Part shown: in pieces, positions 22,518-43,147 of the stretch
Numbering within the stretch: position 1 is the stretch's first letter
Layout of the letters: every line of letters begins with the position of its first letter
Origin: a virus
Lineage: Duplodnaviria > Heunggongvirae > Uroviricota > Caudoviricetes
DNA: 44,699 nucleotides
Virus record (IMG/VR): IMGVR_UViG_2684622541_000016
Direction: 5' to 3' (one strand)
Position numbers and translations under genes: made by a program
The notes under the pieces: generated by a model
Seen by the model: only the letters and a program-made list of their open reading frames with translations
What the model was told of the DNA's origin: nothing
The model's database searches: none

Positions 22518-23975
22518 TTAGGAGCGCCAAAAAAAACCTGAAAACAATATAATAACAGGATAAATTTCAAGGCGACCAAGAATCATAGCTATGCACATTA
22601 AATATTTTGCAATGTCATTAAGCACTCCGAATGACGATGCAGTAGCCCCAAAACCTAATCCCATATTATTAATACATGCAGCCACTGTTGCAAATGATGT
22701 AAGAAAATCATATCCCATACCATTTAACACCAGTATAAAAAACACCGTGAAGAGAGTATAAAGAAAAAAGAAACTCCATACAGACCTCATTACACGATCT
22801 GTAACTATCTTCCCTCCTACATTTACACTCAACAACGCTCTGGGATGAGAAAGCTGATTTATCTCGTGTTTGCTTTGTTTGAAAAGTATAAGAAATCGAA
22901 GTGACTTAATTCCACCACAGGTTGAACCTATACATCCCCCAAAGAAACTTGACAACAGCAAAAACACTATCGTGTGCGTGGGCCAGTTTGCATAATCCTG
23001 CGTAGCTAAACCATTATCAGTGAGCATGGAGCTGGCAAGAAAAAACGAATGAATAAAACTTCCATGCAAGTCATACATACCTATATGCCAGACCTGGAAA
23101 GAGGTAACAATGATCACCCCTAAGGCTATTAACAGAAAGAAACGAAGTTCAATATCTCTGATTAAAGGTTTTATCGTTTTTCTGCTAATAACAATATACC
23201 AAAGAGTGAAGTTGAAAGCCGATAGCAGGGAAAAAGAACCAGCCACCAGCTCAACCAAATAGTTATTAAAATATCCGATACTCTCGCTATGAGTTGAGAA
23301 ACCACCAAGCGAAACTGTGGAAATCCCGTGACAAATAGCATCAAACAAAGGCATTCCTGCAAGTCTATAACAGACAATACAAGCAATACCTAATAAAGAA
23401 TAAGTTATCCACAGTGTCCGTGACGTATCGGCCAGGCGGGGAGTGAGTTTGTCATCCTTAAATGGCCCCGGCATTTCTGACTGATAAAGCTTTGCACCAC
23501 CAATACCCAATAATGGCAATACTGCAACCGCCAGAACAATAACTCCTAAACCACCTATAAAATTTAACTGTGACCGATAGTACAAATATGCCCGAGGTAA
23601 TGAACTAACATCATCAATTACAGTTGCTCCTGTTGTTGTTATTCCAGAAACCCCTTCAAACAGAGCATCAATGAACGTTAAATTAAGTTCTGAGTCAATC
23701 CATAAAGGGAATGCACTAATAACAGAAAACAAAATCCAAAACATTACAATTATAATAAACCCATCACGGGTACGTAATTGAATGCCAGATTTCTTAGTTG
23801 TATACCACGCTCCGCCACCAATGCAAAAAAATATAACGAAAGTTATAAAGAAAACGAACAGGCTTTTTTCTTTATAAAACAATGCTACAACCATTGGTGG
23901 CAACATTGAAAGACTATAGAGCCAAACCAGGAACCCACACATATGAGTAACAACTCTTACATGAGATGTATTCAT
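22518..23975 (-). CDS. trkG: Trk-system potassium uptake protein TrkG (TrkH/KtrB family)
   Basis: Polytopic membrane protein with repeated glycine-containing selectivity-filter-like motifs (GITTTG, GGLG, GGFS, GLGF); 485 aa from MNTSHV; AT-rich; the Rac prophage of K-12 carries trkG at this position. Confidence 0.9.
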   Translation of the reverse strand: MNTSHVRVVTHMCGFLVWLYSLSMLPPMVVALFYKEKSLFVFFITFVIFFCIGGGAWYTTKKSGIQLRTRDGFIIIVMFWILFSVISAFPLWIDSELNLTFIDALFEGVSGITTTGATVIDDVSSLPRAYLYYRSQLNFIGGLGVIVLAVAVLPLLGIGGAKLYQSEMPGPFKDDKLTPRLADTSRTLWITYSLLGIACIVCYRLAGMPLFDAICHGISTVSLGGFSTHSESIGYFNNYLVELVAGSFSLLSAFNFTLWYIVISRKTIKPLIRDIELRFFLLIALGVIIVTSFQVWHIGMYDLHGSFIHSFFLASSMLTDNGLATQDYANWPTHTIVFLLLSSFFGGCIGSTCGGIKSLRFLILFKQSKHEINQLSHPRALLSVNVGGKIVTDRVMRSVWSFFFLYTLFTVFFILVLNGMGYDFLTSFATVAACINNMGLGFGATASSFGVLNDIAKYLMCIAMILGRLEIYPVIILFSGFFWRS

Positions 23976-24112
23976 ATCTAAATATTCTTTCAATTATAAC
24001 CACCTTGCTGCAATATTATGATTATACTGTATAAAATTTAACTCCTCTTAGATCTTACTTCACTGTTCCTTATGAAACAATCATCAAAATGAATCATATT
24101 GTAGTTAAGATT

Positions 24113-24589
24113 TTACTTTAAACACTGCTCGGTTATGTATTGCTGAGCACCTTCAAGTTGGGCCTGCATCATTACCAGTCGTTCCCGGAGGGTGAAATAA
24201 TCCCGTTCAGCGGTGTCTGCCAGTCGGGGGGAGGCTGCATTATCCACGCCGGAGGCGGTGGTGGCTTCACGCACTGACTGACAGACTGCTTTGATGTGCA
24301 ACCGACGACGACCAGCGGCAACATCATCACGCAGAGCATCATTTTCAGCTTTCGCATCAGCTAACTCCTTCGTGTATTTTGCATCGAGCGCAGCAACATC
24401 ACGCTGACGCATCTGCATGTCAGTAATTGCCGCGTTCGCCAGCTTCAGTTCTCTGGCATTTTTGTCGCGCTGGGCTTTGTAGGTAATGGCGTTATCACGG
24501 TAATGATTAACAGCCCATGACAGGCAGACGATGATGCAGATAACCAGAGCGGAGATAATCGCGGTTACTCTGTTCATTGCTGACCCCAC
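24113..24589 (-). CDS. i-spanin Rz
   Basis: 158 aa ORF with N-terminal transmembrane segment and coiled-coil periplasmic domain; follows the endolysin gene with overlap. Confidence 0.85.
24172..24357 (-). CDS. o-spanin Rz1 lipoprotein, embedded in Rz in the +1 frame
   Basis: 61 aa [26 protein letters not shown]... with lipobox VVGC and proline-rich mature region (PPPPPAW...PPPDW). Confidence 0.8.
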
Positions 24590-25077
24590 AAACAGATTTC
24601 ACGCTCAATCTCACGACGAGTCATGAGACCTTTCCATTGCTTACCGCCAGCATATGTCCAGCGACGTAGCTGATCACATGCGCCTTTGATATCGCCCTGG
24701 TTTATTTTGCGAAGAAGCGTCGATNNNNNNNNNNNNNNNNNNNNNNNNNNNNNNNNNNNNNNNNNNNNNNNNNNNNNNNNNNNNNNNNNNNNNNNNNNNN
24801 NNNNNNNNNNNNNNNNNNNNNNNNNNNNNNNNNNNNNNNNNNNNNNNNNNNNNNNNNNNNNNNNNNNNNNNNNNNNNNNNNNNNNNNNNNNNNNNNNNNN
24901 NNNNNNNNNNNNNNNNNNNNNNNNNNNNNNNNNNNNNNNNNNNNNNNNNNNNNNNNNNNNNNNNNNNNNNNNNTCCAGACCATCGTTACCACTTGGGCCA
25001 GTGATTAACACTGATGCTATAGCAATTGCTCCGCCACCAATAGCAGCAGCAACGACTTTTCGTAATGATGGAGGCAT
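24574..25077 (-). CDS. SAR endolysin (lysozyme, phage 21 R type); interrupted by a 249-nt N run
   Basis: N-terminus [34 protein letters not shown] is a signal-anchor-release-like segment; the C-terminus resembles the lysozyme family; start overlaps the holin stop (ATGA). Confidence 0.75.
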
Positions 25078-25292
25078 TATTCACCTCTCGCAGCCTTGCG
25101 CTTATCTTCTTTAATCTTGAAATAAAGGTTTGTCAGGTACGTCAGCAGGCCAAATACCAGACTACCCAGCACACCGATTGCAGCCCACTGTGACGGAGTT
25201 ACTCTATCGAGCAACTGTAAAAACCAGTAGCCAGCACTGCCTGCGGAGGTGCCGTAGGCAATGCCTGTTGAAATTTTGTCCATGGATTTCAT
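25077..25292 (-). CDS. Pinholin S (phage 21 S21 type), dual-start holin/antiholin
   Basis: [31 protein letters not shown]...[13 protein letters not shown], 71 aa, matches S21 as recalled; GGAGG ribosome binding site before the start; dual-start motif M-K-S-M. Confidence 0.85.
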
Positions 25293-25543
25293 AGCCTCAC
25301 CTCCGCACGGAACGGATGGCATAGTTATTATGTGTAGGCTTTCAGACACATCAATCAGAGCCTTAATTGATATATATGCTGGAGACGATGCAATATAAAA
25401 AGCTCGCCGTAGCGAGCTAATAAAATGTATTTCTCTGATATTATGTTTATTTGTATTAGCTCAGACTTGACATCACAGGTTTCGTATATAGAACATCATC
25501 AAATCTGTCAGTTTGCTATGAATGAGATATAGTAATTGAAGAG

Positions 25544-25939
25544 CTAACCTCGCATGTCAAAGCCAGATTTCTGAAAATCTCTGTAGACTTCCGGATTGTT
25601 GAAGGCCGGAAATTTGGCTTTATGAGCTGCGGACTTTATCGCTTCGCAATAGGCTTTATCACCGTTACTGGTAGATATTTTTAACGCCGTGCCATCCTGA
25701 GAGAATTCCATATGCAACCTGCATTTTTTCCCTTTCCAGTTATGCGGCTCATCAAGTTTGGCATTAATTGCAGCTCTGATTCCCCGCGCTTGCGCCCCCC
25801 ATTCATCCTGATCATCCCAGCGTCCTGAACTGCAACTACCTGTAGCAGTAGTTTTGTGGCAATCTGAAGGGTGTAAAGGTGTGCATCCCGCAACAAAACC
25901 GACCCAAAAAGTCAACATAACGATTTTCTTTAATCCCAC
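25544..25939 (-). CDS. Lipoprotein with TolA C-terminal domain (domain III)-like fold
   Basis: GTG start with GAGGAG ribosome binding site; signal peptide plus lipobox VAGC; C-terminal ...KGKKCRLHMEFSQDGTALKISTSNGDKAYCEAIKSAAHKAKFPAFNNPEVYRDFQKSGF... parallels the TolA domain III pattern and is a paralogue of the next gene. Confidence 0.6.
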   Translation of the reverse strand: MGLKKIVMLTFWVGFVAGCTPLHPSDCHKTTATGSCSSGRWDDQDEWGAQARGIRAAINAKLDEPHNWKGKKCRLHMEFSQDGTALKISTSNGDKAYCEAIKSAAHKAKFPAFNNPEVYRDFQKSGFDMRG

Positions 25940-26089
25940 TTCTTGCTCCTCAATCCATTAAAATCTCAGCAATAGTAGTTGTTACGTCCGCCACTGGCTC
26001 AGAGCTGACTATCCGCTAAATTTAGCTCAGTGCCGTAGCTGTGTCAGAACAAACCTAAGCCGAAACCGTTTATTACAAAACAATAAATA

Positions 26090-26518
26090 TCAGGGTTTAA
26101 AATCCAGCACCCCATTTTGAAATACTTTATATACTTCCGGCGAAGGGGGGGCAGGTATATCAGCATTCTTTATCGCATTCATCGCTTCACGACATAAATC
26201 GAGGTCTCCACTTTCTCTTTTAACCTCCAGTAGAAGGCCATTCGGGGCCATATGCATTCTCAGTGTACACTCTTTTCCTGAATACTTACTCGCATCCCCG
26301 AACTGTTTTTCGATGGCGCTCTTGATTTGATGGGCATACAGACGGATATCCTCACTAACATCAGAAGTACGTTCAGATGAACTCACATACTGTGTCTCTA
26401 TTGCTTTATCGGAGTAATATGATGTACGGTCATGATAATTTGTCGATACAGCATCAGTGCACCCGATAATAATCCCACTAATAATCAACGTAAGAATTGA
26501 TGCGCTACGAAAACCCAT
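26090..26518 (-). CDS. Lipoprotein with TolA C-terminal domain (domain III)-like domain
   Basis: Signal peptide plus lipobox IIGC; C-terminal ...YAHQIKSAIEKQFGDASKYSGKECTLRMHMAPNGLLLEVKRESGDLDLCREAMNAIKNADIPAPPSPEVYKVFQNGVLDFKP closely parallels E. coli TolA domain III as recalled. Confidence 0.7.
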   Translation of the reverse strand: MGFRSASILTLIISGIIIGCTDAVSTNYHDRTSYYSDKAIETQYVSSSERTSDVSEDIRLYAHQIKSAIEKQFGDASKYSGKECTLRMHMAPNGLLLEVKRESGDLDLCREAMNAIKNADIPAPPSPEVYKVFQNGVLDFKP

Positions 26519-27107
26519 TTTTCCTCACATATGTCATATAGTAAAGGATTATATATACCGTTGTTTTGGACGCTCAAACAGCGAATCAGATCAAATAAAA
26601 CGCACATTTGTTAACATTTACACAAAGTCTGCGTGGGATATTCTGAAAGAATATCCATAATGTGGAGAGAATCTATTGAAGTGCATGGTGCCGGGTGCCT
26701 CCCGGTGAACAAAATGTTCGTGATACCTGTCGGCGACAGAAAAGGTTAATGGTATCACCCCACCGCACAGGGGGATTCACCATGCAGGAGTTTTCTTAGC
26801 AAACTCACTGCGCGCCCGGCAACTCCCAACCACATAAAATGCGGAGTTTGTGGCATTTATGCATATAACTCGCAGGAATTATCTTAAAAAACTGATGTCG
26901 ATCCGGATTAAAAAGAAGCAGGTCATCATCAGATGACTGGAAAAAAGGAAAACAAAAAATACTCATCATACAGTTTTGATTGCAGGGATGAGCCTGCTAT
27001 GCACAATATGCAGAATATAAGCAAGATAAAAATATGCAGGCATATTATTTCGGATCTTGTTATTAACACAACCTTTTTAATAATCATTTGGCATACAATA
27101 AACCAGC

Positions 27108-27135
27108 CCAAAAAGAACCGCCTAAACAGGCGGTT
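27108..27135 (-). terminator. Intrinsic terminator in the Q-to-lysis intergenic region
   Basis: 8-bp stem aaccgcct / aggcggtt with loop aaac, followed on the minus strand by CTTTTT. Confidence 0.35.
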
Positions 27136-27455
27136 GGTCAATACAAAGGATGCTTCGTCTTTATTATAGTAATCTGAGGCGTCGGGTGTCTTGTATCAGA
27201 CAACATATTGTCCCGCTAAACAGCGAATTACAAACCACCCTGCAATGATCTCTCATCTCATTTTATATGAGTTGACGACATCAGGATAACGCATCATCAG
27301 CCCCTGCCAAGAAATATCAAAACTCCCGCCAGCAATGTGTTATCACAATATTGTAAAAAAAACACAGCACCGAAACTATAACTGGTCTCTGTTATAATTT
27401 GGAGCAGAAAGACCAGTTGCCCAACTAGCAGCATTCTCCCCTGCTTTCCTGACGT

Positions 27456-27562: not shown

Positions 27563-28105
27563 TCAAGCCATTTTCTCAGCAAATGATTCACGCATGGGAA
27601 TATATAGGGCATACTCAGCAACAGCTAACCAATTAGCAATCCGTTTTTCGCATGTGCTAAAACACCACTCTGGGTGTGCATCATTTAGCAATTCAGCCAT
27701 TTTGCGCTTAGTCATCCCCCGCCCTTCATAGCGTTGCCGGAGAATGCAAATCAATCCTGGATGCTCTGCCAGCACCTCACTTATGACTCGATCAATACAT
27801 AACGCCTCTGCATCAGTACAATGCGCCAGCCAGCTCTTTTGCTTGCCGTTGATCATCTCTCGCAAAAACGCTTCCAGCTCAGCTTTCTCTATTCCCGCTT
27901 TTTTCATTCTGCGCAGGGCTTCATTAATGGCTGTTTTCGTCAGTTTTTTGGATGCCAACAACTGATTGAACATATTCCCTGACCTGCCACCGCCAATATA
28001 CGACCAGCGCCCCCACATACGTAGTTTTCCCTGAATCCAGACACTTTCCAGCGTGGTGAGGCGAAGGTGTTCTCCGCTTTTTCCTGTATTCGTTGGGTAA
28101 ATCAT
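27563..28105 (-). CDS. Putative late-gene antiterminator (Q-like), assigned mainly by position
   Basis: 180 aa ORF immediately upstream of the terminator hairpins and lysis cassette, downstream of nin-like genes; overlaps the previous gene by 4 nt. Family not recognised with certainty. Confidence 0.45.
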   Translation of the reverse strand: MIYPTNTGKSGEHLRLTTLESVWIQGKLRMWGRWSYIGGGRSGNMFNQLLASKKLTKTAINEALRRMKKAGIEKAELEAFLREMINGKQKSWLAHCTDAEALCIDRVISEVLAEHPGLICILRQRYEGRGMTKRKMAELLNDAHPEWCFSTCEKRIANWLAVAEYALYIPMRESFAEKMA

Positions 28106-42958: not shown

Positions 42959-43147
42959 ATGTATAAAATTACCGCCACTATTGAAAAGGAAGGTGGCACT
43001 CCTACTAACTGGACAAGATATTCAAAATCTAAACTAACGAAATCAGAATGCGAAAAAATGCTCTCAGGTAAAAAAGAAGCAGGCGTTTCCAGAGAGCAGA
43101 AAGTAAAACTGATAAATTTTAATTGCGAGAAACTTCAGTCCTCGTGA
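42959..43147 (+). CDS. Small hypothetical protein (YdaC-like by position)
   Basis: GGAGG ribosome binding site; MYKITATIEKEGGTPTNWTRYSKSKLTKSECEKMLSGKK..., 62 aa. Confidence 0.45.
   Translation: MYKITATIEKEGGTPTNWTRYSKSKLTKSECEKMLSGKKEAGVSREQKVKLINFNCEKLQSS

Follow-up and report, generated by a model that had tools for sequence, protein, structure and literature searches.

Why should a prophage carry two small lipoprotein genes whose products end in a copy of the C-terminal domain III of TolA (TolAIII), a host protein through which group A colicins and filamentous phages gain entry? The two genes, here called A and B, are found in the IMG/VR virus record IMGVR_UViG_2684622541_000016, a stretch of 44,699 nucleotides (nt) assigned to the Caudoviricetes, which was analyzed at its full length and is referred to as the window. 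They are exactly the two minus-strand open reading frames (ORFs) contained in positions 25544-26518 (Table 1). The answer that we favor, and that we put forward with some reserve, is that A and B may act as outer-membrane decoys of the TolA import hub and would thereby make their carrier tolerant to group A colicins and to Ff-type phages.

A and B are predicted lipoproteins that end in TolA domain III

Both products were matched by the Pfam family PF06519 (TolA C-terminal), with scores of 54.6 bits for A (E 1.3e-14) and 82.6 bits for B (E 2.4e-23), both above the gathering cut-off of 25 bits. In comparisons with the sequences of the Protein Data Bank (PDB), B aligned without gaps with residues 334-421 of Escherichia coli (E. 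coli) TolA (E 5e-28), and A aligned with residues 341-419 (E 5e-9). Across TolA 334-421, B shows 59% identity and A shows 31%. In AlphaFold2 (AF2) models, the domains have a predicted local distance difference test (pLDDT) value of about 90, and the preceding ~45-50 residues, i.e. signal peptide and tether, are of low confidence (<50 in B). For A as well as for B, the top Foldseek matches of these models are E. coli TolAIII structures. The domain model of B superposes on the TolAIII chain 2X9A_B with 0.6 Å over 86 columns (template modeling (TM) score 0.93), that of A on 3QDP with 1.1 Å over 86 columns (TM score 0.92). These results establish the identity of the domain and its fold. An earlier note on this DNA, made from the letters alone, had described the two products as envelope-anchored copies of TolA domain III and had cited a TolA motif (IKSAIE..F.DAS.Y.GK.C.L ... 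GD...C ... P.P....Y..F). The motif is literally present in B, and the Pfam matches, together with the alignments and superpositions that the note had named as checks, fully support the structural claim.

In predicted architecture, neither A nor B is a TolA. The NCBIfam TolA models were matched just in their last ~80-100 positions (model positions ~265-387), and the comparison with these models revealed neither the transmembrane domain I nor the helical domain II in A or B. With the TolA equivalog model NF007065, the scores of A (53.7) and B (107.8) are both under the cut-off of 213; B passed TIGR02794 (75.6 versus a cut-off of 59.45), but through domain III alone. Moreover, both genes lie outside the ybgC-tolQRA-tolB-pal-cpoB operon, sited between the antiterminator gene Q and the holin gene of a prophage at the Rac site. 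They share 29% identity with one another (E 2e-18), and both belong to PHROG 5772. The description of the two as paralogous, made in the earlier note, needs a qualification: A and B are homologs but did not arise from a recent tandem duplication. B is far nearer to the host TolA than to A, and each gene occurs alone elsewhere.

Lipoprotein signals were called with a rule that asks for positive charge in the n-region, for a hydrophobic h-region, and for a lipobox of the form [LVI][ASTVI][GAS]C in roughly the first 35 residues, and all of these elements were found in A and in B. The N-terminus of A is MGLKKIVMLTFWVGFVAGC, with the lipobox VAGC and Cys19 (codon 25883-25885), and the N-terminus of B is MGFRSASILTLIISGIIIGC, with the lipobox IIGC and Cys20 (codon 26459-26461), so that the lipoprotein signals are established and the two lipoboxes originally proposed are borne out. 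Shine-Dalgarno motifs are present 5-6 nt 5′ of each start codon (GAGGAG for A, GAGGAA for B). For A, the GTG start is favored over the start at Met8 given in RefSeq, because the copy of A on plasmid pO157 has an ATG where A of the window has the GTG. A lipobox was seen in 120 of the 120 relatives of A listed and in 26 of 30 full-length relatives of B. The lipobox Cys and both domain Cys, corresponding to the TolA disulfide, are invariant in both subfamilies.

In E. coli, an Asp at position +2 keeps a lipoprotein in the inner membrane. The residue at +2 after the lipobox Cys is Thr in A and in B, and it is Ala, Ser, Thr, Gly, or Val in the relatives, but never Asp. Because of this Thr, the +2 rule predicts that Lol would sort both proteins to the outer membrane.

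The signal peptide of B is followed by a disordered tether (residues 21-54) and TolA domain III (residues 55-142; 26093-26356), and that of A by a tether with a conserved motif and TolA domain III (residues 44-131; 25547-25810). The tethers of A and B comprise ~25-35 residues and are predicted to be disordered in the AF2 models. In the tether of A (residues 19-47; 25801-25885), the motif reads C-x7-CHKTTATGSC-SSGRWDDQDEW and includes two extra Cys. It is kept in 120 of the 120 relatives listed, from several genera, and the AlphaFold confidence is low in this region. The tether segment GSCSSGRWDDQDEWG bears a loose likeness to the TolB-binding epitope of colicin E9, GASDGSGWSSENNPWG. However, the Trp are spaced differently, and the second one lies in the folded domain of the AF2 model, so that the likeness is probably coincidental.

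The ligand-binding surfaces of TolA are largely kept in B

In TolAIII, a ligand-binding hub in the periplasm, strand β3 is the site of β-strand addition for the N-terminus of TolB, for the N1 domain of the filamentous-phage protein g3p (g3p-N1), and for colicin N (ColN), while colicin A binds at β2, in the LLDIKP box (PMC4339652; PMC7391070). Proline substitutions at TolA D418 and K420 abolish the binding of TolB, ColN, and g3p, and β3 mutants without TolB binding show the full tol phenotype (PMC4339652). In the same paper, the affinities of TolAIII are ~1 µM for ColN and ~40 µM for TolB, i.e. ColN is bound ~40 times tighter (PMC4339652).

In B, the sequence of β3 is FQNGVLDFKP, compared with FKNAPLDFKP in TolA, and the equivalents of D418 and K420 are kept. 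Helix α2 is also mostly kept (YAHQIKSAIE versus YAGQIKSAIE in TolA), and the changes in the colicin A box are conservative (LLEVKR versus LLDIKP). The ligand sites of B are not clearly over-conserved, with 7 of 10 identical positions in β3, 11 of 16 in α2, and 3 of 6 in the colicin A box versus 59% overall, values that are too weak as evidence.

Both genes are under purifying selection

The ratios of nonsynonymous to synonymous substitution rates (dN/dS) were estimated with the Nei-Gojobori method. For B, the value is 0.36 in comparison with a 66%-identical allele and 0.24 in the domain alone, and for A it is 0.08-0.12 in comparison with the copies from pO157, Citrobacter, and Serratia. Over both genes, the values range from 0.06 to 0.36, and they are <1 in the N-terminal parts also, which establishes, for the sequences compared, that A and B are under purifying selection.

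The existing annotation gives a different picture. In RefSeq, A is named [quoted passage not shown] and starts at Met8, so that the charged n-region is lost. B is often tagged by RefSeq and the Prokaryotic Genome Annotation Pipeline (PGAP) as a tolA pseudogene, “incomplete; missing N-terminus” (e.g. NZ_CP033250.1, L005 20691-20951). The pseudogene tag of B and the Met8 start of A look like annotation artefacts that arise from naming by full-length TolA. Contrary to the RefSeq label, the data mark B as an intact gene for a lipoprotein, and one that is kept by selection.

At Pro123-Pro124, the codons of B contain a homopolymer, a G7 tract on the plus strand (26145-26151) that is read as C7 in the coding direction. 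Phase variation at this tract was considered and rejected, as the 81 nt around it do not differ among 727 of 791 complete genomes and frequent switching is thus unsupported.

The PGAP label, together with the existence of some B alleles that are frameshifted at the G7 tract, would be compatible with the view that A and B are debris, i.e. fragments of tolA that were gained by illegitimate recombination and are carried passively. This view is largely refuted, and we regard it as highly improbable, in light of the dN/dS values of 0.06-0.36, also <1 in the N-terminal parts, and of the invariance of the lipobox Cys and both domain Cys in alleles with identities down to 65%. The proper Shine-Dalgarno motifs and start codons of both genes, the identity of 727 of 791 complete genomes around the G7 tract, and the occurrence of the same architecture in at least 54 clusters at 50% identity (see below) likewise speak against it.

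Relatives are found on phages, plasmids, and chromosomal islands

Among named sequences, B-type genes occur in E. coli and Shigella alone. The 66%-identical B-type allele is present as a solo gene in the Q-to-holin slot of other lambdoid prophages (L006-L008 6001-6429), where it is preceded by Q, a TfpB-like gene, a gene for an AraC-type regulator, and a pair of tRNA genes. The copy in L008 is located directly 5′ of a nanS-p-like esterase gene. This slot is presumably the one that harbors stx in 933W-type phages.

A-type genes have a wider range and are 78-99% identical across Citrobacter, Enterobacter, Klebsiella, Raoultella, and Serratia. One copy is encoded on the IncF plasmid pO157, downstream of psiB, psiA, and hok, and other copies are bare solo ORFs in variable chromosomal islands. 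In a sequence named Serratia marcescens (P0049; L013 6957-8736), a solo A-family gene is situated between nrdDG and a pair of GmrSD_N (DUF262) and HEPN genes, a neighborhood that resembles a defense island.

A tblastn search over plasmids gave matches in 1,300 records. Relatives are present also on Klebsiella IncF plasmids, where one copy forms a pair with a thioredoxin-fold protein of the periplasm. A block of TolA-C, TonB_C, and bacteriocin genes is carried by at least 246 small plasmids, which are mostly from Klebsiella and have a size of ~10-12 kilobases (kb) in the examples seen. Their TolA-C protein is a lipoprotein of 123 amino acids (aa) with the lipobox LTAC and the C-terminus FKNAPLDFRP, and their TonB_C protein is a soluble protein of 121 aa with a Sec signal peptide. 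The adjoining bacteriocin, in which a Cloacin translocation domain is combined with a colicin E2-type receptor domain and an E3-like ribosomal RNA nuclease (rRNase), is a relative of the E-type nuclease colicins and is thus expected to be Tol-dependent. On the K. pneumoniae plasmid p1_020030 (NZ_CP028788.2; L002 5908-6641), the TolA-C and TonB_C genes overlap, and the pair is divergent from the operon for bacteriocin, immunity, and lysis. In some of the plasmids, a group II intron is located inside the block, and next to the bacteriocin gene of a related plasmid, a gene for an exclusion lipoprotein of the Exc2 family was found. As judged from these sequences, the small bacteriocin plasmids carry both import hubs as loose heads.

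An exhaustive HMMER search with A yielded 130 clusters at 50% identity, 54 of which represent proteins of 100-170 aa with a lipobox and 21 of which represent long, TolA-like proteins; all named members are from Enterobacterales. With 54 of the 130 clusters being short and having a lipobox, the combination of lipid anchor, tether, and TolAIII is a broad and recurrent design, and its distribution over mobile elements is established. A neighbor-joining tree of the domains is too crude for counting independent origins.

A and B occupy the cargo slot between Q and the holin gene

The 1.3-kb segment with A and B is identical in E. coli chromosomes, where it is flanked by intR, xisR, recET, kilR, sieB, and trkG, and the window is a lambdoid prophage at the Rac site. 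The order on the minus strand is Q, a promoter-like site with a hairpin, an STnc100-like RNA, a sigma-70-like site, B, A, a terminator-like hairpin, and the genes for holin, endolysin, and spanin (Table 1). In RefSeq, the lysis cassette is annotated with essD, rrrD, and a lysis protein. The placement of A and B in the late operon, proposed in the earlier note, agrees with their position between the antiterminator gene and the holin gene, and the location of the pR′-like site relative to Q would fit the architecture of lambdoid late operons.

Table 1 Features of the window in and around the slot between Q and the holin gene
Feature	Coordinates	Strand	Evidence and remarks
Late-gene antiterminator Q	27563..28105	(-)	PHROG 753 anti-termination protein Q-like, E 2e-79; upstream slot boundary
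Candidate late promoter, pR′-like	27163-27192	(-)	Downstream of Q; consensus scan
Terminator hairpin	27116-27135	(-)	After pR′-like site; consensus scan
STnc100-like structured RNA (Rfam RF02076)	26629..26815	(-)	86.6 bits versus gathering score 47; directly 5′ of B
Sigma-70 promoter-like site (TTGAGC, 18-nt spacer, TATAAT)	26548..26577	(-)	~30 nt 5′ of B; consensus scan
Gene B	26090..26518	(-)	142 aa, ATG start, lipoprotein; ORF
Gene A	25544..25939	(-)	131 aa, GTG start, lipoprotein; ORF
Intrinsic-terminator-like hairpin (AGCTCGC-TACG-GCGAGCT, then TTTTT)	25401..25418	(-)	Between A and holin; scan and direct reading
Holin	25077..25349	(-)	PHROG 9876 and PHROG 20; downstream slot boundary, start of holin-endolysin-spanin cassette

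The promoter and terminator calls are consensus matches that are not enriched in comparison with shuffled sequence; of sigma-70-like sites, the region has 11 versus 7.6 ± 2.2 expected. They are therefore weak pointers and do not prove a promoter.

The guanine plus cytosine (G+C) content of the block with A and B is below that of its neighbors. Positions 25076-26806, which include the holin gene, the terminator, A, B, and the STnc100-like RNA, are 97% identical to phage mEp460_ev081, which has another Q and another endolysin region and also carries an STnc100 element 5′ of B (114 bits). This difference in the phage backbones indicates that 25076-26806 travels as a block, and the STnc100-like RNA forms the upstream edge of the block common to mEp460_ev081. 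The 3′ hairpin of the RNA is devoid of the U-run of the family consensus, so that transcription may read through into B, with the RNA as a leader. STnc100 as a general companion of TolA-C genes was considered and rejected, as none was found 5′ of the B variant, of A-family copies, or of plasmid copies examined. The segment 25400-26700 is present, at a coverage of at least 80%, in 773 of 5,426 complete E. coli genomes (~14%).

A few further observations concern the remainder of the window. It contains two runs of N, 24725-24973 (249 bases) and 2403-2451 (49 bases), the first of which covers the central part of the endolysin gene (24574-25077) and leaves its product only partly readable. Immediately downstream of the lysis cassette, an ORF of 491 aa (22518-23993, minus strand) is found at the position of the potassium transporter gene trkG of the matching RefSeq prophage. 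The antitoxin small RNA RalA was detected at 42965-43143 (minus strand, 225 bits); Rac of E. coli K-12 has it as well.

The position of A and B bears on a rival explanation, according to which they are saboteurs of Tol-Pal. The tethered heads would titrate the TolB N-terminus, block the force-dependent release of Pal, and weaken the outer membrane, and the payoff would be leakiness, vesicles, or an easier rupture of the outer membrane and phage release, or, in the case of the plasmids, the release of the bacteriocin. Compatible with sabotage are the location of both genes in a Q-dependent late operon immediately 5′ of the holin-endolysin-spanin cassette, the TolB-binding strand kept in B, the plasmid homologs that adjoin a bacteriocin in need of release, and the B-type gene in what we take to be the stx slot of 933W-like prophages. 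The full tol phenotype of TolA β3 mutants that have lost TolB binding (PMC4339652) and the use of periplasmic TolAIII for releasing periplasmic proteins into the medium (PMC6195910) also argue for it. However, the solo A-family copies on pO157 and in chromosomal islands lack a lysis or release context, spanins are already encoded by the phage and a dedicated release lipoprotein by the plasmid, TolA-C of the plasmids is transcribed divergently from the bacteriocin operon, and it is not obvious how the co-encoded TonB_C would add to leakiness. In addition, the affinity of TolB for TolA is weak, ~40 µM (PMC4339652). Taken together, we consider sabotage unlikely.

Non-energized TolA heads as possible decoys

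In the decoy reading, A and B would hang free TolA heads from the periplasmic side of the outer membrane by the flexible tether of ~25-35 residues. There, group A (Tol-dependent) colicins and related bacteriocins would meet the heads with their translocation domains, and Ff-type filamentous phages with the g3p-N1 tip domain, and the heads would capture them via their β-strand-addition surfaces, as in real TolA. A captured ligand would not be imported, the head being uncoupled from the TolQR motor and the proton-motive force, and the lysogen or plasmid host would become tolerant. Besides the outer-membrane location, which derives from the +2 rule, we infer ligand binding, expression in the lysogen, and a tolerance phenotype.

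The earlier note had named a decoy role and a perturbation of Tol-Pal side by side, and the results here do not discriminate between the two. Several results nevertheless make the functional proposal more plausible. First, B keeps β3 almost unchanged and has a conservative colicin A box. Second, the lipoprotein-TolAIII design recurs beside operons for Tol-dependent bacteriocins, together with a secreted TonB_C, on at least 246 plasmids; a decoy or tolerance role fits best to this pairing of a loose TonB head with a Tol-dependent bacteriocin. Third, solo A copies adjoin GmrSD and HEPN genes. Fourth, periplasmic TolAIII makes the outer membrane leaky in experiments (PMC6195910). Fifth, with affinities of ~1 µM for ColN and ~40 µM for TolB, a decoy could catch invaders at a modest cost for Tol-Pal (PMC4339652). 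A and B are placed in the Q-to-holin cargo slot with promoter-like and terminator-like sites of their own, which are consensus matches.

Other results weigh against a decoy role. A has diverged in β3 (FQKSGFDMRG) as well as in the colicin A box (ALKIST), and its ligands may therefore differ. About 27 B sequences in the protein collection (~4%) are frameshifted at the G7 tract, by which the last 17-18 residues, including β3, are replaced. Expression in the lysogen is hypothetical, the promoter-like site being unenriched in comparison with shuffled sequence, and expression restricted to the late phase would be ill-suited to a protective role. A faithful mimic of TolAIII should, by analogy with engineered periplasmic TolAIII (PMC6195910), also compete for TolB, a leaky envelope being the cost. 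Finally, PADLOC has no model for A or B, and the search of PADLOC-DB gave no match for either at E <= 1; their family, PHROG 5772, is listed with “unknown function”, and no annotated exclusion family was matched in PHROGs.

The divergence of A leads to a further alternative, in which the fold is the same but the job is another one. The TolA/TonB-type head would be a general β-strand-addition module for a different envelope partner, e.g. an outer-membrane protein, a target of conjugation or entry exclusion, or a tailed-phage receptor, and A and B would have distinct ligands. This would account for the low identity of A with TolA (31%) and the change of both mapped ligand sites, and the additional Cys-loop and acidic Trp motif, which the tethers of A-family proteins keep strictly, suggest a second functional element. 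The Exc2-family exclusion lipoprotein beside the bacteriocin gene of the related plasmid and the pairing of a Klebsiella IncF copy with a periplasmic thioredoxin-fold protein point in the same direction, and the retention of two dissimilar copies by a single phage speaks for targets that are not redundant. On the other hand, B and the Klebsiella plasmid copy, whose C-terminal strand FKNAPLDFRP nearly equals that of TolA, resemble faithful mimics of TolA rather than repurposed scaffolds, and no data here point to another partner. A different job of this kind seems to us rather improbable.

If the decoy reading is extended beyond the window, Enterobacterales mobile elements, i.e. prophages, F-type plasmids, small bacteriocin plasmids, and genomic islands, would deploy detached heads of the periplasmic force transducers TolA (on an outer-membrane lipid tether) and sometimes TonB (as a secreted partner) as broad-spectrum decoys of import hubs, an unrecognized class of defense. 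This generalization is doubtful, and we hold it with less confidence than the decoy role of A and B themselves. If it is true, such decoys would confer tolerance to whole groups of bacteriocins, to filamentous phages, and possibly to TonB-dependent phages, not to one attacker.

Comparison with known systems

A close known counterpart of A and B is domain III of E. coli TolA (~334-421; 1TOL, 1S62, 3QDP/3QDR, 2X9A), with which they have the domain, the fold, and the disulfide pair in common. In contrast to TolA, A and B have no domains I and II and are thus uncoupled from TolQR and the proton-motive force, they are predicted to be lipid-anchored to the opposite (outer) membrane, and they are encoded by a prophage instead of the tol-pal operon. 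An engineered periplasmic TolAIII, a fusion of a signal peptide with TolA domain III (Levengood-Freyermuth and coworkers, 1993; Wan and Baneyx, 1998; both as cited in PMC6195910), results in leakiness of the outer membrane (PMC6195910). This construct, like A and B, is an exported free TolA head without a connection to the motor, but it is a soluble, overproduced artefact, whereas A and B are natural, lipid-anchored, tethered, under selection, and spread on mobile elements. Levengood-Freyermuth and coworkers reportedly observed in 1993 that periplasmic TolAIII also gives colicin tolerance. A periplasmic C-terminal domain of TonB is likewise said to be dominant-negative (Howard and coworkers, 2001), and the Sec-secreted TonB_C of the plasmids is an analogous loose head of the other import system; it is soluble and does not occur in this window.

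Small lipoproteins encoded by mobile elements, such as Cor (phi80, N15, HK022), Llp (T5), and TraT (F), are thought to protect their carrier at envelope entry. A and B can be likened to these carrier-protecting envelope lipoproteins, but they would mimic an import hub instead of masking a receptor: Cor and Llp block the outer-membrane receptor FhuA, whereas A and B would mimic a hub of the host in the periplasm. As judged from the comparisons with PHROGs and PADLOC, such exclusion proteins have no sequence relationship to A or B. The morons of lambdoid late regions, e.g. bor and stx, resemble A and B in being cargo in or beside the late operon. The block with A and B has promoter-like and terminator-like sites of its own (consensus matches, not enriched in comparison with shuffled sequence), has a lower G+C content than its neighbors, and is exchanged as a block between phages; the products and presumed functions of bor and stx are other than those of A and B.

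The assignment of the TolA domain is already part of the Pfam and RefSeq annotation, but the biology appears to be uncharacterized. No functional study of such TolA-like lipoproteins was found in the full-text literature, subscription-only papers being outside the scope of the search. A comparison of uropathogenic E. coli (UPEC) lists an accessory segment of 1,355 base pairs merely as “TolA protein, hypothetical protein”. An evolutionary survey of TolA and TonB from 2025 makes no mention of plasmid copies or of stand-alone or truncated forms; “phage” appears twice in the survey, in one case with regard to phage defense by ZorAB. The “TolA-type” gene EDL933_2012 (32-fold induction by ciprofloxacin) was considered as evidence for expression and rejected, as the supplement of the paper calls it a tail fiber protein.

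If A and B are decoys, they could help to explain differences between strains in their sensitivity to colicins and bacteriocins. With the segment in ~14% of complete E. coli genomes, a relative on pO157, and others on Klebsiella plasmids in the hundreds, they would also be relevant to bacteriocin and phage therapeutics against E. coli and Klebsiella. The mimicry of a host import hub would join the known strategies of exclusion, and proteins of this type would be natural dominant-negative probes of Tol-Pal.

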